Assembly: GCF_021246445.1 (NCBI RefSeq)
Contig: NZ_JAJQXW010000005.1
Span: forward strand, 186,001 to 250,000
Reading direction: 5' to 3'
Origin: Rhabdothermincola salaria
GTDB lineage: Bacteria > Actinomycetota > Acidimicrobiia > Acidimicrobiales > Acidimicrobilacustridaceae
DNA length: 64,000 nucleotides
The notes beneath the pieces are model-generated. The model saw nothing but the letters and a program-made list of their open reading frames with translations. It did not search any database and was not told where the DNA came from. The position numbers and the translations under genes are program-made. Of this stretch, positions 53,973 through 64,000 are shown in pieces. How positions within the stretch are numbered: position 1 is the stretch's first letter; each line of letters starts with the position of its first letter.

Positions 53973-55601
53973 TCAGCAGGTGGCGGTGGTGCCGGGTGCC
54001 GTGGCGGTCGCCGCCGACACGCCGTCGACGTAGAGATCGACCCGGTACTCCACCGGCGCGCAGGCACGTGGCGTGCTCAAGGTGATGCCCTGCCCGTCGG
54101 TGGGCAGGCCCACGTAGAAGAGCTCGGAGGGCTGGATCCACGATGCGCCGGGAGCGGGCCGCTCGTAGATGGCGATGATGACCTGGTCGTCGTCCCCGAC
54201 GCCGGCGATGTCGAGCTCGACGGTGGTGCGGTCGTCGGCGAAGGCGAGGGTCTCGATCGTGACCGATGCGTCGGGCGGCGGTGTTCCGGCCGGCGCGAGG
54301 TCGACGCCGGGGGTCTGGTCGGCTCGGGCTTCGGCGACGAAGCGCATGCTGCGGGCCCGGAACTCCTCGACGAGGTCGGTCTGCTCGGGTGCGCGGTCCT
54401 CGACCCACTCGAGGGCGGTGAGGTACTGGGCCGCCAGAGCACGATCGACGTCGGAACCGGCGAGGGGTGCCATGAACTCGAGGGCTCGGCGGAGCCATTC
54501 TTCGGCCGTGGCCGCATCGCCCTCGGCGATGGCCACCGCCGAGCGGGTGAGGGCCAGGCCGGGTGTGCGCTGGTTCTCCCCGATGGCCAGCTCGAGCAGC
54601 TCCGCGGTGCGGGCCCAGTCGGCGCCGACGAGGGTGGCGAGGGCGGCGGTGGCCACGGTCGTGGGGTCCTCGTCGCCGCCTTCGCGAAGCGCCACCTCGA
54701 GCTGGGCGGCCGTGGTCCGCAGCAGGTCGGGGTCGTTGTCGGTGATGGCGAACGTGCGAAGGAGGTCCGGATTGGCCTCCACCAGCGTGGACAGGCCGAG
54801 GCCCCGGTGGGCGATCTGGTAGCCGTCGTCGGCGGTCACGGCGTCGGCGAACGCCGCCACGGCATCCGTCGCCCGGCCCTCGTCGAGCGCGACCTGGCCC
54901 GTGGCGCTGGAGGTGATGGCCTCGGGGGCGACGTCGGGGATGGGCTTGAGGTAGATCTGGATCGCCCAGCCGAAGCAGAACACCGCCAGGATCATGCCGG
55001 GCACCACGAACGGGGGTCGCAGGCCCCGCGACACCACCATGGTGAAGCCGACGAGGAAGATGGCCACCGCCAGCGTCGTCAGCACCGTCTCGTACTGCGA
55101 GGCCCGGTTGTTCCAGGTGATCCGTTCGGCGACCAGCTGCTTGTGCTCGAGGGCGAGAGCACGAGCCTCCTCGCTGATCTCGGTGGCGCGGACGGCGTCG
55201 CCGGTGAGCGCGCGCTCGACGACGGCGGTGGCCTCCTCGACCCGGCCTTGCTCGGCGTCGGGGTCGAGGGTGATGGCCCCCTCCTCGGCGGCGATCTCGG
55301 GCAGGCGGAAGCCGGGCCGGGACGCGAAGACCTTCATCTCGGCCTCTGTCTGATCGATGCCGGCCTTCACGCCCTGGTCGACGACGGCGGCCGTCTGGGA
55401 CTCCGAGGCGAGGCGGGTGGCTTGGCGCGTCGTGCGCGACTCGTTGGTCCCCGCGTCGGTGGCCAGCACCGCGATCCACCCACCGAGCAGGGCGAGGACG
55501 GCGAGGGTGATGCCCACCCCGCGCCGGTAGCGCGCCTCGGTGCGGTCGTGGACCTCGGGCTCCTGGGCCGCCGAGTCGGTGGGGTCCGGTGGCGTCGCCA
55601 T
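53973..55601 (-). CDS. Hypothetical membrane protein with TPR-like helical region and C-terminal beta-rich domain
   Basis: TM, helical loop, two TM, TPR-like repeats, then RACAPVEYRVDLYVDG..ATC. Confidence 0.7.
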   Translation of the reverse strand: MATPPDPTDSAAQEPEVHDRTEARYRRGVGITLAVLALLGGWIAVLATDAGTNESRTTRQATRLASESQTAAVVDQGVKAGIDQTEAEMKVFASRPGFRLPEIAAEEGAITLDPDAEQGRVEEATAVVERALTGDAVRATEISEEARALALEHKQLVAERITWNNRASQYETVLTTLAVAIFLVGFTMVVSRGLRPPFVVPGMILAVFCFGWAIQIYLKPIPDVAPEAITSSATGQVALDEGRATDAVAAFADAVTADDGYQIAHRGLGLSTLVEANPDLLRTFAITDNDPDLLRTTAAQLEVALREGGDEDPTTVATAALATLVGADWARTAELLELAIGENQRTPGLALTRSAVAIAEGDAATAEEWLRRALEFMAPLAGSDVDRALAAQYLTALEWVEDRAPEQTDLVEEFRARSMRFVAEARADQTPGVDLAPAGTPPPDASVTIETLAFADDRTTVELDIAGVGDDDQVIIAIYERPAPGASWIQPSELFYVGLPTDGQGITLSTPRACAPVEYRVDLYVDGVSAATATAPGTTATC

Positions 55602-55602
55602 G

Positions 55603-56337
55603 TCAGAAGACCGTGACCACCGTGGTCACGACGACCGTCAGGGCCAGGGTGGAACCCAGGGCGGTGCCCACGCGGCGGGTGAGCACGCGATCGGTGAGCT
55701 GGGCCGCGGTGTAGAAGACCACCGCGACCAGCAGCAGCAGCGTGGCCCAGCGAAGGTTGCGAACCCGGTCGCGGGTGTCGTCGGCTCGCTCCGCCCAATC
55801 GTCGGGGTTGGGGACGCCCGGCGAGGCGAGCCCGGTGGTCACCTCGGCCTGGAGCACCTCGATCTGTGCGTCGAGGTCGAACGACAGGGGATCGTCCGGA
55901 GCGGCCACGAGTTGGGTCAACAACGTCTGCTCGCCGAACAGCCCGGACGCGTACGCCAGGTCCGAGGCGGCGACCCTCTGCTCGTCGGCCTGGGTGGCGA
56001 AGGTGTCGGCGAGATCGTCGGCGCCCTGGTCCCGGAGGGTCGGGAGCAGCGCGTCGATGGCGTCGGCCTCGGCGTAGGCGGCCACGTAGCGGACGTAGGC
56101 CACGGCATCGGTGATGGCCGCCAGGGCGACCTCGGTCGCCTGCTGTTGCTGGACGATCGTCTGGCCCACCGACTGACGATCCTCGTACGCAGCCGTCGAG
56201 CCGAGCTGGCCGGCCCGCCACGTGAAGATGCCGGCGATGATCGTGATGACCCCGATCAGCAGCGGTAGGAGCCAGATCGGGATGTACCGGCGCGGAGGAT
56301 CCGCCGGGCGGTCCTGTCCTGGGTCGTCCGCGGTCAT
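55603..56337 (-). CDS. Hypothetical 3-TM membrane protein (DUF4337-like layout)
   Basis: TM, about 130-aa helical loop, two TM; stop 1 nt before the next start. Confidence 0.7.
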   Translation of the reverse strand: MTADDPGQDRPADPPRRYIPIWLLPLLIGVITIIAGIFTWRAGQLGSTAAYEDRQSVGQTIVQQQQATEVALAAITDAVAYVRYVAAYAEADAIDALLPTLRDQGADDLADTFATQADEQRVAASDLAYASGLFGEQTLLTQLVAAPDDPLSFDLDAQIEVLQAEVTTGLASPGVPNPDDWAERADDTRDRVRNLRWATLLLLVAVVFYTAAQLTDRVLTRRVGTALGSTLALTVVVTTVVTVF

Positions 56338-56482: not shown

Positions 56483-58573
56483 TCACGGCTGGGGCGGGCG
56501 CGGCGGTGCGCTGGCCGCGAGGCGGACCGGGACCCCCGACTGCAGCACCATGCCGGTGAGGGGGTCGACGGCCTCGTCGGCGCTGGTCAGCGAGCTCACG
56601 TTCGGATCGTCCCAGCCGTGGGCCACCGTCACCGCGTCGGGATGGAGACGACCGTCGGCTCGGAGGGTGCCGGTCAGCTGGCCCCATGGCGAGGTCACCG
56701 TCACGCCGGTGCCGTCGGGTCCGATCGGGGTGGCGGCGCTCGGGTGAGCCATGACGAGCACCACCTCGGTGCGACCACCCGGGGCCGCCACGTCACGCAG
56801 CTGCGAGTTCATGGTGCGCAGCTGGCGGTGGGGCACGAGGACGAGCCCGGGGGCGTGATGGGAGCGGGCCTCGGCCAGAGCCTCCTGGAGCTGGCCGAGC
56901 AGCACCTCGGGGGCCAGACGCCACCTCCCGTCGGGGAGGACCTTCTCGTGGACCCAACCGAACACGGCCCCCGAGGCGACGATGCCCGAGCGGGCACCCC
57001 GCATCGCCTCGGCCCCCACGGCGCTGCGGGCGAGCAACGGCTCGAGCAGGTCCTCGTCGGTCGCGTCCGCCACCGTCAGCCCCCGGGGGAGGGCGCTGAA
57101 CCCGAGGTGTTCGGCCACCGTCCCCAGCGACCACCACACGGGCCGGCGCTCTGAGGTCGGTGCGACCACCGCCTCGGTGAACTGGCCGGCGACCGCGAGC
57201 TGGTAGGTGTCGAGCAGCCAGGTGGCGTCGGCCCGTTCGAGCTGGTCGACCGCAGGCAGGACGTGCGTGGCCAGCTCGGTGGTCTCCGTGGCCACCACGT
57301 CGAGCACGGCGAGGGTGGGCAGCGAGGCCAGCGCCCGGCGGGTGCGGGCGACGTCGGGGAAGGCCGTCACCGGGTTCCCGCCCACGACGATCAGTGCGCC
57401 CACGTGGCCCGCTTCGATCTCGCTCACCAGCCCGGCGCAGGGCCATTCGCCGAAGCGATGGGGGAGCTCGGGCCGTGACGGCGGGCCGGGGCCCGGCGCG
57501 CCGCTCGACGCCTCCCACTGCCGGGTGTCCAACCGGGAGAGCAGCCCGGGGTTGAACCACATGCCGCCGGGTCGGTCGTAGGAGTCGGTGACCACGTGGA
57601 GGGCCCAGAGGAGGTGCTCGGTCACGTTGGCCGTGGCCGCCATCGAGGTGCCGGTGCCCGTGAGCGCGCTCACCCGCCCCGCCTCTCGCACGGCGGCCAG
57701 GAGCCCGGCGAGATCCTCCGCGGCCAGGCCGGTGGCCCCGGAGACCAGCCCGTCCTCGAAGCCGACGAGCGCAGCGGCGAGCTCGGCGATGCCCGCGGCC
57801 CGGCGTTCCGCGTCCGCCCGCACCTCCGCGTCGTCCAGGAGCCTCCGCACCAGCCACCCCAGGACGAGCCAGTCGGTGCCGGGTCGCACCTGCAGGTGGT
57901 GGTCGGCCTGTGCCGCGGTCTCCGTGCGGCGGGGGTCCACCACCCACAGCCGGCCCCCGCGCGATCGGTGCTCCCGCAAGCGGTTCACCGGGTCGGGGAT
58001 GGCGTTGGAGTGGCCGTGGGAGACGATCGGGTTGCTGCCGAAGAGCACCAGGAGCCGGCTGCGCTCGTGGTCCCACACGGGGGTCAGCCCGCTCCATCCA
58101 CCGACCAGCTCGGCCACGAGGGGCTTGCATGGCGTGTCGATGGTGGTGGCGGTGTACTTCTGGCGCGAACCGAGGGCGCCGAGGAAGCGTTCGGCGGCCC
58201 GCCGCCCGGCGCTGTCGAAGGCCGACCCGCTGGCCAGGTACATGGCCACGCCGTCGGGGCCGTGCTCGTCCACGGTGGCGGTGATGCGGGCGGTCAGGTC
58301 GTCGAGGAGCGCGTCCCAGCCGACCGCCTGGCGGGCGGAGCCCCTGCCCACCTCGGGGCGGTCGAGCCGCTGCGGGCTGTGGTGCAGCGCCGGGAGGGCC
58401 CGGCCCTTGGGGCAGCTGTAGCCGCGTGAGAGGGCGTGCTCGGGGTCGCCTCGCACCTCGAGCACGCGGTCGCCCTCGGTGCGCACGACGACACCGCACA
58501 TGGCGTTGCAGATCCGACAGAACGTGCGGTGTTCGTCGGGGGCCACGTCGCCGTCGCCATCGTCGACCGTCAT
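56483..58573 (-). CDS. Molybdopterin-dependent oxidoreductase
   Basis: CRICNAMCG..CPKG Fe-S motif, GSNPIVSHG, VDPRRTETA, C-terminal dinucleotide-binding domain. Confidence 0.92.
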   Translation of the reverse strand: MTVDDGDGDVAPDEHRTFCRICNAMCGVVVRTEGDRVLEVRGDPEHALSRGYSCPKGRALPALHHSPQRLDRPEVGRGSARQAVGWDALLDDLTARITATVDEHGPDGVAMYLASGSAFDSAGRRAAERFLGALGSRQKYTATTIDTPCKPLVAELVGGWSGLTPVWDHERSRLLVLFGSNPIVSHGHSNAIPDPVNRLREHRSRGGRLWVVDPRRTETAAQADHHLQVRPGTDWLVLGWLVRRLLDDAEVRADAERRAAGIAELAAALVGFEDGLVSGATGLAAEDLAGLLAAVREAGRVSALTGTGTSMAATANVTEHLLWALHVVTDSYDRPGGMWFNPGLLSRLDTRQWEASSGAPGPGPPSRPELPHRFGEWPCAGLVSEIEAGHVGALIVVGGNPVTAFPDVARTRRALASLPTLAVLDVVATETTELATHVLPAVDQLERADATWLLDTYQLAVAGQFTEAVVAPTSERRPVWWSLGTVAEHLGFSALPRGLTVADATDEDLLEPLLARSAVGAEAMRGARSGIVASGAVFGWVHEKVLPDGRWRLAPEVLLGQLQEALAEARSHHAPGLVLVPHRQLRTMNSQLRDVAAPGGRTEVVLVMAHPSAATPIGPDGTGVTVTSPWGQLTGTLRADGRLHPDAVTVAHGWDDPNVSSLTSADEAVDPLTGMVLQSGVPVRLAASAPPRPPQP

Positions 58574-58622: not shown

Positions 58623-60017
58623 TCAGGTGCTGTCGTTGACCTCGAGCGCCACGGGGTGCCGGACCACGAGGCGGAAGCGGCCGCGCCCGGTCTTCTCGAT
58701 GCGCACCGGCGCCGAGCGCTCGTCGAGGCGGCGCTTCAACAAGATGAGCCGACTCTCGAGGTTGTCGCGGAGCTCGGGGAGCTCGAGCGACGGGTCGAGG
58801 CGCACCTCCTTGTTGGTGAACTCGGTGCGCCCGTCGCGTTCGTGGCTGCGCAGCAGAGAGCACAGGACGCGTCCGGCAACGCCCTTGATGAGGTACTCGC
58901 CGTCCACGAACACGCTGCCGTCGGCGGCGTAGGTCCGGACCACCGAGACGGGGGTGCCCGAGGCGCCCGGGGCCGGTCGGTTCGCGGCGGAGGGGCGACT
59001 CGGGGACTCCGGGTGGTCCCGGGCCTCCGCTCGGGCGGCCTCGATGCCGGCGGCGACCACGGCGGCAACGACCGCCAGGGCGGCCTCGTCGGCCGGACCG
59101 AACGCCACCTTGTCGCGGCTCTCGACGGCCAGCACCCCGACGAGCTGGCCGAGCACCTGCAGCGGGACGGCCAGCTGGCTCTCGGCGTCGTCGAGCACGG
59201 GCAGGGGCACGATCGGTCCGCTCAGGTCCTCACCCTTCGCCTCGAAGGAGCGTCGGACCGTGCGGGCGTACTTGCCCATCTGCCCCAGGTTCCCGATGCG
59301 GACCGGTGCGCATCGTTGACCGGCCAGGCCGATGGTGCCCTCCCCCAGGGCCAGCTCCGAACCCACGCCTTCGTCGGGGTAGCCGTGGCTGGCGATGGTG
59401 TAGAGCTGCTCGCCTTCTTCGTCGTGGAGGGCCAGGACGACGTGGTCGTAGCCGAGCACCGCCGACAGGCCTCCCACGGTGGCGTCGACCAGCGCATCGA
59501 GGTCGCCACACCGGGCCAGCCGCCCGGTGAGCTCGGCGACGGCGCCGAGCTCGACCTCGGCGAGCGGCGCGGGTTCGGGGCAGGCGCCCTCGACCAGGTG
59601 CACGGCGGCGGGCACGTGCTCCACGGCGACCACCCGGTAGATGTCGGCCGCACGGAGACGGAACACGTCCTGCATGCCGCTGAGCGCGGCGATGGTGTCG
59701 ACGTCCTCCCGGAGCCGGTCGAACACCGGTCCCCGCCGGTCGGTTCGCTCGTAGACGAGGGCGAGGCGGTACTCGTCGTAGTTGCGGGGGTCGAGCACCA
59801 GCACGCTGGCATGGGGGTTCTCGGCCAGGTTGCGGGCGGTCTTGGAGAGGAACTGGTTGGACAGCGCCACCCGCTCGCCGTCGACCATCCGCACCCGCGA
59901 CAGGTAGGTGACGTTCGGTGTCCCGTCGGCCGCGGCGGTAGCGATCACTGCGGGGACCCCGCCCTCGAAGCAGATCGCCAGATCGGCGAGGGAGACGTCT
60001 CTCGACGGGGTGCTCAC
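58623..60017 (-). CDS. PNPOx-like + GAF + winged-HTH putative transcriptional regulator
   Basis: IATAAADGTPNVTYLS..NQFLSKTARNL; GEGTIGLAG..SQLAVPL..GVLAVES; DNLESRLILLKRRL..TGRGRFRL; GTGA overlap. Confidence 0.82.
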   Translation of the reverse strand: MSTPSRDVSLADLAICFEGGVPAVIATAAADGTPNVTYLSRVRMVDGERVALSNQFLSKTARNLAENPHASVLVLDPRNYDEYRLALVYERTDRRGPVFDRLREDVDTIAALSGMQDVFRLRAADIYRVVAVEHVPAAVHLVEGACPEPAPLAEVELGAVAELTGRLARCGDLDALVDATVGGLSAVLGYDHVVLALHDEEGEQLYTIASHGYPDEGVGSELALGEGTIGLAGQRCAPVRIGNLGQMGKYARTVRRSFEAKGEDLSGPIVPLPVLDDAESQLAVPLQVLGQLVGVLAVESRDKVAFGPADEAALAVVAAVVAAGIEAARAEARDHPESPSRPSAANRPAPGASGTPVSVVRTYAADGSVFVDGEYLIKGVAGRVLCSLLRSHERDGRTEFTNKEVRLDPSLELPELRDNLESRLILLKRRLDERSAPVRIEKTGRGRFRLVVRHPVALEVNDST

Positions 60018-60487
60018 GAGCGCACCGGGGACAGCGGCGAACCGGCGTCGGGACCCGGGGTCTGGTCGAAGCGATCCTCGACCGCGACCGTGCAGGCGAC
60101 GATCGCTCGTGGGCGCCAACGCTCGAGGATCGGCCGAGCGGCTCCGTCGGCGGTCTCGATGTCGGCGAACAGCGCGTCGATGTAGGCCTCCGCCGTGGTG
60201 AAGTCGGCCGGCCCGGCGGGTTCGATGCCGAGCGAGCGACCCTTGAGCTGCACCGACCGGAGCGTGGGGACGTCGGCCGCGGTCACCGCGACGGCTCCAC
60301 CATCGCCCAGCTGCCGGCACAACGCGTGGTCGTCGCCGCTCACCAGGAGCCGCAGGCGGTCGGGGTCGTCGTCGAGCACGACGAGGCCCCAGCCGCGGCC
60401 CGCGTGGGGAAGGCCGTCGGGGCCGACCGTGGCCACGATGAGCGCTGCGCCGCCCTCGAGCAACGCCCTGGTGTCGGGGTCGAACAC
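60014..60487 (-). CDS. Pyridoxamine 5'-phosphate oxidase-family (split-barrel) protein
   Basis: VATVGPDGLPHAGRGWG, SVQLKG, FDQTPGPDAG. Confidence 0.85.
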   Translation of the reverse strand: MFDPDTRALLEGGAALIVATVGPDGLPHAGRGWGLVVLDDDPDRLRLLVSGDDHALCRQLGDGGAVAVTAADVPTLRSVQLKGRSLGIEPAGPADFTTAEAYIDALFADIETADGAARPILERWRPRAIVACTVAVEDRFDQTPGPDAGSPLSPVRS

Positions 60488-60661
60488 GGCGCGTCGGGCC
60501 TTTCGTCGGTTGAGTGAGCGACCGAGTAGCGATCGTGGGCTTTTCTTAGCATTTCGCGCCGGATCTCTGAGCAACGCCGCACGCGCCGAACCCTCACGAT
60601 GGCTCCGACGAACCCCGGCACCGGCCACCCCGGCGGTGTCGACACCTCGAAGGAGACCACC

Positions 60662-61384
60662 ATGACCATCACCGCATCCCCGTCGGCGACCGCCGTCCCC
60701 GCCCCGTCGGACCTGGCGCCGATCGTCGTCGACCTGTACCGCGACATCCACAAGGGGATCCGTGCCGAGCTGTTCGCGGCCACCCTCGACGCCGGTCGGG
60801 CCGATCCCGCCGACGACGCCGGCCGGACCGCACTCGATGCCCAGGTGAACGACCTCGTGCGCTTCCTCGGGCAACACGCCGAGCACGAGGACGGCGCCAT
60901 CCAGCCGGTGCTCGAGATCGAGCTCCCGGACCTGGCCGAGCGGGTGGCGCGAGAGCACGTCGGCCTCGAGGGCCGCATGGTTCGCCTGGCCGAGATCGCC
61001 CAGGTGGCCCGGGTGGCCCCCGACCACCACCAGCGCCTCCGGGTGCACCAGCTCCACGTGGAGCTGGCCGCCTTCACCTCCGAGTACCTGGCCCACCAGG
61101 ACCTCGAGGAGCGGGTCGTCATGCCGGCCCTCGAGCAGGCCGTCGGGGCGGAGGCGGTGGTGGCCATCCACGCGGCCATCGTGGGCCCGATGCCCCCCGA
61201 GGAGCTCATGGCCAGCCTGGCGGTGATGGTCCCGGCGATGAACGTCGAGGACCGCGTGGAGCTGCTGACCGGCATGCGGGAGAGCGCACCCCCCGAGGCG
61301 TTCGAGGCGGTGCTCGGCCTCGTGCGCAGCGTCCTCGAACCGGCCGGGGCTCGTGCCGTCTCCCGCCGTCTCGGCGTCGCTTGA
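60662..61384 (+). CDS. Hemerythrin-domain protein
   Basis: LYRDIHKGIR, HAEHED, REH, HQDLEE; AAGGAG RBS. Confidence 0.88.
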   Translation: MTITASPSATAVPAPSDLAPIVVDLYRDIHKGIRAELFAATLDAGRADPADDAGRTALDAQVNDLVRFLGQHAEHEDGAIQPVLEIELPDLAERVAREHVGLEGRMVRLAEIAQVARVAPDHHQRLRVHQLHVELAAFTSEYLAHQDLEERVVMPALEQAVGAEAVVAIHAAIVGPMPPEELMASLAVMVPAMNVEDRVELLTGMRESAPPEAFEAVLGLVRSVLEPAGARAVSRRLGVA

Positions 61385-61425: not shown

Positions 61426-61455
61426 GGGAACTCCCCAGGGAACTGGGATGTCCCC
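61426..61455. promoter_or_regulatory. Repeated GGGA-N3-CCCC boxes upstream of the cupredoxin gene
   Basis: GGGAACTCCCC, GGGAACT, GGGATGTCCCC, then TACCGT at 61472. Confidence 0.45.
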
Positions 61456-61517: not shown

Positions 61518-62123
61518 ATGTCCACGACCATCGCTCCCTCTCGTCGCCCCTCTCGCACCCTCTCGGCCCTGGCTGTCGTGGTCCTGCTCGGCCTCGGCGC
61601 CGTGGCGTGCGGTGACGACACGTCCGACGAGGTCGGGGCCGAACCCAGCGGCGAAGCTGCGACCTCGACGACCACCAGCACCGACGGGCGGACCGTCGAG
61701 GTCGTCGCCACCGACTTCGCCTTCGACGGGCTGCCCGAGGAGGTGCCCGTCGGCACCCAGGTCACGCTCGTCAACGACGCGGGCCGTGAGCTCCACGAGT
61801 TGGTGGCGTTCCGCCTCCCCGACGACGAGACCCGCACCGCCGAGGAGCTCATGGCCGATCCCTCGGCCCTGGGCGGTCTGCTCGCCGGGGCCGAGCCGAC
61901 CATGGTGCTGCTGGCCGAGGCCGGCGCGCCCCAGATCGCTGCGGTCGGCGACGGGACCTTCACCGAGCCCGGTCGCTACCTCGTGATCTGCGCCATCCCC
62001 ACCGGCGCCGACCCGGCCGAGTACCTGGCCGCCGCCGCCACCTCCGACGGGCCGCCCCAGGTGGAGGGTGGCGCTCCGCACTTCGCCCACGGGATGTGGG
62101 GCGAGGTCGAGGTCGTGGCCTGA
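61518..62123 (+). CDS. Cupredoxin-like lipoprotein
   Basis: Lipobox AVAC, HEL, PGRYLVIC, PHFAHGM (His/Cys/His/Met). Confidence 0.82.
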   Translation: MSTTIAPSRRPSRTLSALAVVVLLGLGAVACGDDTSDEVGAEPSGEAATSTTTSTDGRTVEVVATDFAFDGLPEEVPVGTQVTLVNDAGRELHELVAFRLPDDETRTAEELMADPSALGGLLAGAEPTMVLLAEAGAPQIAAVGDGTFTEPGRYLVICAIPTGADPAEYLAAAATSDGPPQVEGGAPHFAHGMWGEVEVVA

Positions 62124-62367: not shown

Positions 62368-62718
62368 ATGACCAGCATCCGCACCCGCACCCTCCGCATC
62401 GTCGCCGCCACCGCCCTCACCGTGGGCCTCGCCGGCTCCAGCACGGCCGTCTACGCCCTCACCCCCGCGCCGGATCCCGGGCCGACCGACCTGGCCCCGG
62501 GCGGCAACGGGCCGGACGATCCCGGCTTCGGTGGTCCCGACGACCTCACCACCCCGACGACCGAGCCCGAGTGCCACCCGTTCCTCGCCACCTGCGACCT
62601 CGCCCCGAACCCGGAGGACCCCGGCGACCCCGGCGACCCCGAGGTCGACGACGGTGGCCCCGAGGTCGACGACGGTGCCGCCGTCCCGGTCGTGGTGCGT
62701 CCCACCTTCACCGGCTGA
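62368..62718 (+). CDS. Small secreted Pro/Asp/Gly-rich protein ending in PTFTG
   Basis: GAGGAG RBS, signal peptide, strong third-position GC. Confidence 0.8.
   Translation: MTSIRTRTLRIVAATALTVGLAGSSTAVYALTPAPDPGPTDLAPGGNGPDDPGFGGPDDLTTPTTEPECHPFLATCDLAPNPEDPGDPGDPEVDDGGPEVDDGAAVPVVVRPTFTG
62617..62677 (+). repeat. In-frame tandem repeats (9-bp and 21-bp period)
   Basis: GACCCCGGC x2.7; CCCGAGGTCGACGACGGTG at 62638 and 62659. Confidence 0.85.
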
Positions 62719-62767: not shown

Positions 62768-64000
62768 ATGGCTCGACGCTTCGACGACGACCCGGACTTG
62801 GTGCTCGCCGCTCGCTTCGGCGACGAGCAGGCCTTCACCACCCTCTTTCGACGGTGGTTCGCCCCCTGCGTCGACGTGGCTCGCCGGATCGTGCGCGACG
62901 ACGACACGGCCGCCGAGGTCGCCCAGGAGACGTTCCTGGTGGCCTGGCGTCAGCTGGGCACGCTCCGCGACCCGTCGGCCTTCGGGGGGTGGGTGCTGCG
63001 CACCAGTCGCAACAAGGCGCTCAACCGCCTCGAACGGGAGCGGCGCAGCATCGCCGTCGACCAGGACGAGTCACCGGTGCTGGCCGAGCTCGAGGCGGGT
63101 GGCGACGTGGCCGCTGACGTCGCCGCCCGCGACCAGCAGCAGCTGGTGTGGGCGGCGGCGGCGGCCCTGGGCGAGCGAGATGCCAGCATCCTCGACCTCC
63201 ACCTGCGCCACGAGCTCGATGCCGGTGAGATCGCCGAGGCCCTGGGCGTCACCCCCAACAACGCCCACCAGTTGCTCTTCCGCATGAAGGGTCGCCTGGC
63301 CTCGGGGATACGCGCCTGGGTGCTGTTCAAGGGCGGCGACCCCGCCTGCCCGGAGTTGGCGGCCGATCTGCGTCGGTCCGATGCCCTGCGCTTCTCGGCG
63401 GCCACCGTGAAGGTGGTCGGCCGGCACGTGCAGCGCTGCGACGACTGTGCCGACCGACAGGCCGCGGTGCTCGCCCCCGAGGCGCTGTTCGCCTCGGTGC
63501 CGCTGCTGCCGATCGGGGTCGGGCTGCGCGAGCAGGTGGCCGAGGGTCTGCGCCAGGCCGGTGTGCCTCTCGGCCCCGACGCCGCCGTCCCCGTGGAGCC
63601 GGCGGCCACGGAAGGCGCCGGCGCCCCCGACGCCGACCTCTCGGTCGACGGCGACCACGGCGCGGGCGAGGGGCACCCCGGTCCGGTCGCCGAGGCGCCG
63701 GCGCCGGACCGCGACAGCACCACCGCCCTCGCCTCTCCCGCCACCGTCGGGGTCGAGCCATCGGTCGGTGTCGGAGACCCGCCGTCGGGCGAACCGAGAT
63801 CGTCCCGGGCCGCCATCGCCGTCGTGGCGCTGCTGTTGGTGCTGGCCGGCGGTGTGCTCTGGGCGCTGCGCTCCGGCGGCGACGACGAGGTCGAGGTGGT
63901 CGCGGCCTCCGAGCCCGGGTCCACGTCGACGGCTTCCCAGCCATCGAGCACCGCCCCACCCGCGCGGGAGCCCGAGCTGGTGATCGAGTTCGACCCGACG
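62768..64000 (+). CDS. ECF sigma factor with fused zinc-binding anti-sigma motif, linker and TM helix (runs off window end)
   Basis: Not in the ORF track. My translation gives GDEQAFTTLF..AEVAQETFLVAWRQL..FGGWVLR, EIAEALGVT, HVQRCDDC, then IAVVALLLVLAGGVLWAL. Confidence 0.9.
   Translation, partial: MARRFDDDPDLVLAARFGDEQAFTTLFRRWFAPCVDVARRIVRDDDTAAEVAQETFLVAWRQLGTLRDPSAFGGWVLRTSRNKALNRLERERRSIAVDQDESPVLAELEAGGDVAADVAARDQQQLVWAAAAALGERDASILDLHLRHELDAGEIAEALGVTPNNAHQLLFRMKGRLASGIRAWVLFKGGDPACPELAADLRRSDALRFSAATVKVVGRHVQRCDDCADRQAAVLAPEALFASVPLLPIGVGLREQVAEGLRQAGVPLGPDAAVPVEPAATEGAGAPDADLSVDGDHGAGEGHPGPVAEAPAPDRDSTTALASPATVGVEPSVGVGDPPSGEPRSSRAAIAVVALLLVLAGGVLWALRSGGDDEVEVVAASEPGSTSTASQPSSTAPPAREPELVIEFDPT

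Follow-up and report, generated by a model that had tools for sequence, protein, structure and literature searches.

Within the 64,000 nucleotides analysed from Rhabdothermincola salaria (the window), a small split-barrel gene runs into the gene for a three-domain protein, and a hemerythrin gene is transcribed away from both (Table 1). The question raised by this locus is whether the three genes form one regulatory system and, if so, what it would sense and what it would control. The original prediction had described a flavin and di-iron sensing module, in which a small PNPOx protein pairs with a PNPOx-GAF-winged-helix regulator of the hemerythrin gene.

The gene pair and its neighbourhood

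The open reading frames, the GTGA overlap, and the divergent hemerythrin gene are all confirmed. Among 41 related genomes, all eight full-length loci have the identical layout, so the three-gene arrangement is not due to chance. The sequence AAGGAG at 60650 lies ahead of the hemerythrin start at 60662. A longer version of this gene, starting at 60599, was rejected, as that start falls within the -10 box and has no ribosome-binding site.

Table 1. Features of the locus, in coordinates of the window
Feature	Position	Strand	Description
Regulator gene	60017 to 58623	-	464 aa, GTG start; split barrel, GAF, and OmpR/PhoB-type winged helix
Small split-barrel partner gene	60487 to 60014	-	157 aa
GTGA stop/start overlap of small barrel gene and regulator gene	60014..60017	-
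Hemerythrin gene	60662 to 61384	+	240 aa, FBXL5-like, predicted target; PF01814 E 2e-7
Regulator split-barrel domain	59604..59996	-	aa ~8-138; structural matches 3in6, HupZ, YviC
GAF domain	59016..59564	-	aa ~152-334; closest is PtsP GAF (3trc, Z 19.8)
Winged-helix DNA-binding-type domain	58635..58949	-	aa ~357-461; mean column identity 66 %, 65 loci
Predicted operator	60534..60579	+	four 11-bp repeats, (T)TAG(C/G)A-like; motif discovery, matrix scans
Predicted sigma-70-type -10 box	60595..60600	+	CACGAT; invariant A and T (55 of 55 sites)

The regulator family is a large one, with 5,196 members among 8,000 scored candidates, and most of its more than 5,000 proteins are misnamed 'adenylate cyclase' or 'GAF domain protein'. 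The nearest homologues of the regulator are from Acidimicrobiales. Its distribution is patchy: a full-length copy is present in 7 of the 41 relatives, and a scan of another 300 well-assembled genomes from the phylum, with five candidates scored in each, turned up no member. The best 80 of at least 592 GTDB loci come from Actinomycetota, Pseudomonadota, Acidobacteriota, Chloroflexota, Myxococcota, and Gemmatimonadota. Three of these 80 begin inside the regulator gene; in all 77 with upstream DNA the small gene is directly upstream of the regulator gene, 59 of them with a -4 in-frame overlap. Metagenome loci show the same (64 of 65 with upstream DNA). Across 251 genomes of the class, the small gene is present in 14 and the winged helix in 16, the small gene never without the winged helix; the two genomes with the winged helix alone hold truncated remnants that lack the operator.

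The two barrels are also found joined or rearranged. Eight proteins fuse the small barrel to the regulator, some of which may be sequencing artefacts. In 19 three-gene loci, eight of them close kin, the regulator is split at the border of barrel and GAF with both barrels kept and a -4 overlap at 17 of the 19 junctions; loci broken at other positions were left out of this count. A subfamily of GAF-winged-helix proteins lacking the barrel was considered and rejected, as on the contigs seen the barrel is encoded by the gene immediately upstream. The conserved core of the module is the pair of small barrel and regulator, and the co-conservation across phyla that had been named as a check on the original prediction holds for this pair.

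Other genes in the window were also noted. A molybdopterin oxidoreductase gene (56483-58573, - strand), 49 bp downstream of the regulator gene, is not conserved, and was rejected as a member of the module with one weak match in 172 related loci. Further downstream of it, two unannotated membrane proteins of 542 aa (weak TPR and DUF4337 matches) and 244 aa are encoded at 53973-56337 (- strand), and a fragment like the latter sits near the barrel-regulator system in locus L033. Directly after the hemerythrin gene there is a lipoprotein gene (61518-62123, + strand) with weak similarity to CopI (cupredoxin-like); a homologue also follows the hemerythrin in L039 and L051, and a paralogue is at G000 C3:395138. 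By eye, a GGAACT..GTC pattern near 61428 resembles an ECF promoter. Next are genes for a short secreted Pro/Asp-rich protein with two Cys (62368-62718, + strand) and for an ECF sigma factor whose long C-terminal extension has a Cys-rich motif and a transmembrane segment (62768-64000, + strand).

Domains of the regulator and the partition of motifs between two barrels

Matches to PNPOx_N and GAF (both E 1.5e-10) were obtained in Pfam for the regulator, and its AF2 model is confident (pLDDT 91.3, pTM 0.89). For the C-terminal domain, Pfam and other sequence profile searches gave no known family and no match to Trans_reg_C. Foldseek searches with the full-length protein were dominated by GAF. For the C-terminal 113 aa, folded separately (pLDDT 92), the top five structural matches were all OmpR/PhoB effector domains. 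The winged-helix fold is the same as in BaeR (4b09), GlnR (8hml), AdeR (5x5l), and PhoB (1gxp) (Z 10.5, 8.7, and 8.7; for BaeR, Z 10.5, rmsd 2.5, and 96 residues aligned). The C-terminal winged helix is thus an OmpR/PhoB-type DNA-binding fold, as confirmed by structure prediction only. The regulator is not, however, a response regulator: identity to OmpR/PhoB proteins is 11-17 %, it has no cognate kinase, no receiver domain was found in Pfam, NCBIfam, or structural matches, and its input consists of the barrel pair and the GAF domain. An OmpR-type domain that works in the absence of phosphorylation is shared with ToxR, TcpP, and CadC (8b4b, 9gdr, 5ju7; Z 6.4-7.8). ToxR and TcpP each work together with a small protein whose gene is coupled to theirs. 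All three are located in the membrane and carry the DNA-binding domain at the N-terminus, whereas the regulator here is predicted to be soluble and has the winged helix at its C-terminus.

The GAF fold is common to PtsP (Z 19.8), fRMsr (18.7), and DevS GAF-B (15.6), and NifA also has a GAF sensor; the output of the regulator differs from that of PtsP, NifA, DosS/DevS, and fRMsr. No conserved Cys was found among the GAF columns (C236 is present in 16 of 83), and the activity class of fRMsr was rejected, since its conserved catalytic cysteines are missing. Y250 and R255 are strongly conserved. One protein (P0247) has the barrel and GAF fused to a Ser/Thr kinase in place of the winged helix, which suggests that barrel-GAF is a portable sensor.

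The regulator barrel belongs to the split barrels by fold, its structural matches being 3in6 (Z 15.6), HupZ (13.8), and YviC (13.5), whereas the small barrel is assigned to this superfamily by profile only: its PNPOx_N match in Pfam (E 4.9e-4) is under the cut-off, its family profile matches PDB 2htd (E 2.7e-4), and it bears only a weak resemblance to the regulator barrel (hhalign probability 50 %). The fold and the KTxxN helix motif of the regulator barrel are found in Swol_0183 (3in6), YviC (7eg5), the D. vulgaris FMN-binding protein (1axj), HupZ, and LDB0262 (2htd), and the alignment to FMN-binding 3in6 includes KT..N. Those FMN-binding split barrels are stand-alone homodimers, whereas here the motifs are divided over two divergent barrels, one of which is fused to a transcription factor. 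The regulator barrel retains N35, S40, Q55, F56, K59, T60, N63, and C16 but not the QxKG and QTP motifs; the small barrel retains R31, Q80, K82, and the C-terminal Q142-T-P-G-P but not KTxxN. In 151 pairs, a KTxxN-type motif is present in 143 regulator barrels versus three small proteins, QxKG in five versus 148, and Q[TS]P in one versus 148. From the homodimeric relatives, QxKG and the C-terminal QT presumably make up the side of the FMN site that the partner contributes.

Based on the fusions, the three-gene splits, and the complementary motifs, the two barrels probably form a heterodimer, and one with a single complete cofactor site is the simplest reading. Inter-protein covariation over the 151 pairs (effective number 115) gave a top z of 4.2 and no interpretable contacts. 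FMN or FAD is a reasonably likely cofactor of the pair. FMN binding does not follow from a PF01243 match by itself (PMC4556617), and within the family several members bind heme or nothing (PMC4556617, PMC11602992).

Neither barrel is a pyridoxamine-phosphate oxidase. According to PMC4556617, PdxH is distinguished by a PF10590 domain and the motif EFWxxxxxRxHxR; only PNPOx_N was found here, and the motif is in neither translation. F420-dependent PPOX oxidoreductases (TIGR03618) were also considered, with scores of 33.7 and 18.4 bits against a cut-off of 79. Obligate use of F420 was rejected, as of 15 regulator-positive genomes, a few of them incomplete, 3 have CofG/FbiC above the cut-off; it is unlikely that the module requires F420. 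The genomes with CofG/FbiC above the cut-off include a Variovorax and a Thauera (G339 and G340).

Predicted operator, promoter, and target genes

Motif discovery with 88 upstream regions gave an operator motif with near-invariant A at positions 4, 15, 26, and 37. Beyond the training window of the motif, A63 and T67 are invariant in all 55 sites, out of 58, that have enough downstream DNA, and because of this invariance they are read as part of a sigma-70 -10 box. The predicted transcription start is at about 60607, with no consensus -35, and a scan for consensus promoters and terminators found nothing. At this locus repeats 2 and 4 are intact (A60548, A60570), the first and third being degenerate, and a further repeat pair upstream (A60517, A60528) is out of phase, as if 9 bp had been inserted; given the degenerate repeats and the displaced pair, this copy of the operator may be a weaker one. 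No other site in the genome scores as high: it reaches 28.4 bits, against 4.2 for the next, with the locus left out of training.

In cross-validation, for which site registers were taken from the joint fit, a matrix from 30 actinobacterial sites gave scores above 15 bits in 32 of the 53 other loci but in none of 265 Markov-resampled controls, and 28 of the 32 sites precede a hemerythrin or cytochrome gene; the reverse test with a non-actinobacterial matrix gave 22 of 40 versus 0 of 200. The operator was likewise found in 47 of 80 loci of a separate metagenome set (0 of 240 controls), 40 of the 47 having the -10 A and T. A model built without the relatives finds sites in exactly 7 of the 41 genomes, those with the regulator, a co-occurrence that is largely linkage and kinship. 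The interval 60488-60661, where binding by the regulator had been proposed, thus contains an operator pointing at the hemerythrin promoter, as predicted by motif discovery and cross-validated scans.

Two hemerythrin genes away from the regulator locus carry the operator, one on another contig (G341) and one in G349; it was absent at all 25 other hemerythrin loci, 21 of them weaker-matching (a few being contig fragments) and four others. In G356 and G358, sites that lie on contigs of their own (L239 and L244) are probably from the same operon, broken in assembly, and were not counted as distant. Regulator-positive genomes have operator sites in 18 of 24 cases and none were found in the other six; with one or two sites in each genome, the regulon is small. 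The predicted operator follows the target gene wherever this is located. Alphaproteobacterial sites have low scores and altered spacing. Repeats with altered spacing precede a cupin-NAT-YceI or an FMO-like gene in five alphaproteobacterial and Cupriavidus plasmid loci (L014-L016, L018, L180). A strong second operator (E 3.4e-8) in L245 (G358:C228:905-972) precedes an open reading frame that by eye resembles an ECF sigma factor.

The hemerythrin family has its best PDB match in the FBXL5 hemerythrin domain (3v5x, 3u9j; E 1.2e-9). Its conserved residues are H30, H72, H75, E76, H99, H145, E149, and E150; five His/Glu positions are in register with FBXL5, H99 is out of register, and one FBXL5 Glu, presumably the bridging Glu, is replaced by Ala. 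In contrast to FBXL5, the bacterial protein is stand-alone and has a 70-aa C-terminal extension and the additional conserved residues H75 and Y26. Identity as an iron-sulfur repair protein of the RIC/YtfE/DnrN kind was rejected on NCBIfam scores of 15.4 versus 204.7 and 14.9 versus 300 bits.

Within the best 80 of at least 592 GTDB loci, a hemerythrin gene is near the pair in 46, a single-heme cytochrome c gene in 22, TPP-dependent E1 alpha/beta genes in 12, and an SO2930-like diheme cytochrome gene in six; 68 of the loci have at least one of hemerythrin, cytochrome c, or E1. The divergent layout is typical only of the Acidimicrobiia, where the hemerythrin gene is divergent in 27 of 27 hemerythrin-bearing loci (four of the five loci without it are contig ends); in other phyla it is near the pair in 19 of 48 loci of the same set and convergent in 16 of those. 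The hemerythrin is therefore an output of the module rather than, as had been proposed, a constant di-iron component of its sensor; elsewhere the operator precedes genes for c-type cytochromes or other proteins. Six loci (L073, L097, L050, L143, L167, L170) have a cytochrome c, E1 alpha, E1 beta operon under the operator, and no adjoining E2 gene was seen in these. In four more (L049, L060, L069, L078), where E1 alpha/beta comes first in its unit, the operator lies 72-91 nt ahead of E1 alpha in inverted orientation, scoring 20-36 bits on the reverse strand, and a TAGACT-like -10 still follows.

Proposed activation mechanism and competing explanations

It is very likely that the regulator binds the repeats and activates. 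If the conserved A and T are taken to be -11 and -7, the adenines of the repeats come at -70, -59, -48, and -37 and share one helix face. In the proposed mechanism, the small barrel would pair with the barrel of the regulator, holding a flavin near the conserved C16, and the redox state of the flavin would be relayed via GAF to the winged helix. Winged helices would bind the four 11-bp repeats head-to-tail, from about -70 to -33, replace the -35 box, recruit polymerase, and so switch the hemerythrin gene on. PhoB at pho boxes replaces the -35 box; binding of 11-bp direct repeats in its place is the predicted likeness here, from sequence alone. The signal might be redox, O2, or NO stress, a reading preferred on the ground that iron or heme proteins make up most of the targets, although the case for it is evenly balanced. 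Taken as a whole, a phosphorylation-free activator with a barrel-pair flavin sensor that switches on the hemerythrin gene through the repeats is slightly favoured.

Repression followed by release from the repeats on a signal is barely credible as an alternative: autorepression would be plausible in divergent loci, where the repeats are just upstream of the start of the pair, and the operator is inverted before E1 alpha in four loci, but a repeat array reaching to about -33, with constant spacing to an intact -10 box and no consensus -35, has the geometry of an activator-dependent promoter. With activation retained, the main rival concerns the signal, because genes for efflux, acetyltransferase, and monooxygenase proteins are also fronted by the repeats. 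The same activator and operator would then respond to an organic effector bound in the pocket of the GAF domain or the barrel, namely a redox-active or N-containing aromatic (for instance a quinone, an arylamine, or a nitroso compound), and the barrel pair may also convert this effector enzymatically. Operator-like repeats before genes for an MFS (DHA2) efflux pump, a cupin/arylamine N-acetyltransferase/YceI operon, and FMO-like and FAD-oxidase-like genes fit this, as do the resemblance of the GAF domain to the small-ligand GAFs of PtsP/NifA type and its conserved Y250 and R255. The efflux pump and the products of the cupin operon are not redox proteins, which also speaks against the redox reading. 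Such targets are a minority, however, beside the 68 of the best 80 loci noted above, and an organic effector is unlikely.

The remaining alternatives concern the barrels. If the pair bound heme and the system reported iron or heme status, the hemerythrin and cytochromes would be iron sinks made when the cofactor is available. The regulator barrel also resembles HupZ and HutZ, the nearest solved relative of the target is FBXL5, itself an iron sensor, and candidate ligands exist in C16 (62 of 65), M115 (invariant in A3), and Tyr/His at position 102 of the small protein (52 of 65). Yet neither barrel has an invariant His, the best structural and profile match is FMN-binding 3in6, and no iron-uptake genes are among the recurrent neighbours of the pair, which makes this reading quite improbable. 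A role of the small barrel as anti-activator or separate enzyme, beside a homodimerizing regulator barrel, is very unlikely; split barrels are normally homodimers (PMC4556617), and the covariation gave no clear contacts, but covalent fusions, 1:1 translational coupling, and mutually exclusive motifs better fit a permanent partner.

A literature search, largely of open-access sources, found no description of the architecture or the gene trio, in agreement with the original prediction that it had no functional characterization. The module is a real, widespread, and apparently uncharacterized one-component regulator with a new type of input. The most specific form of the proposal, rather doubtful in its entirety, is an obligate heterodimer of two divergent barrels with one cofactor site beside a conserved Cys, gating a GAF-winged-helix activator that needs no phosphorylation, portable in that barrel-GAF also occurs on a Ser/Thr kinase, and controlling FBXL5-like hemerythrins and periplasmic cytochromes in six phyla. 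Split barrels have known roles as enzymes and carriers, and transcription factors that sense by means of flavin usually do so with PAS, LOV, or BLUF domains; if the proposal is true, a split-barrel heterodimer as the input of a widespread regulator would be a new sensor type. As the operator and promoter are predicted to base level, binding, activation, and signal are testable, and the module offers a handle on the role of bacterial FBXL5-like hemerythrins.
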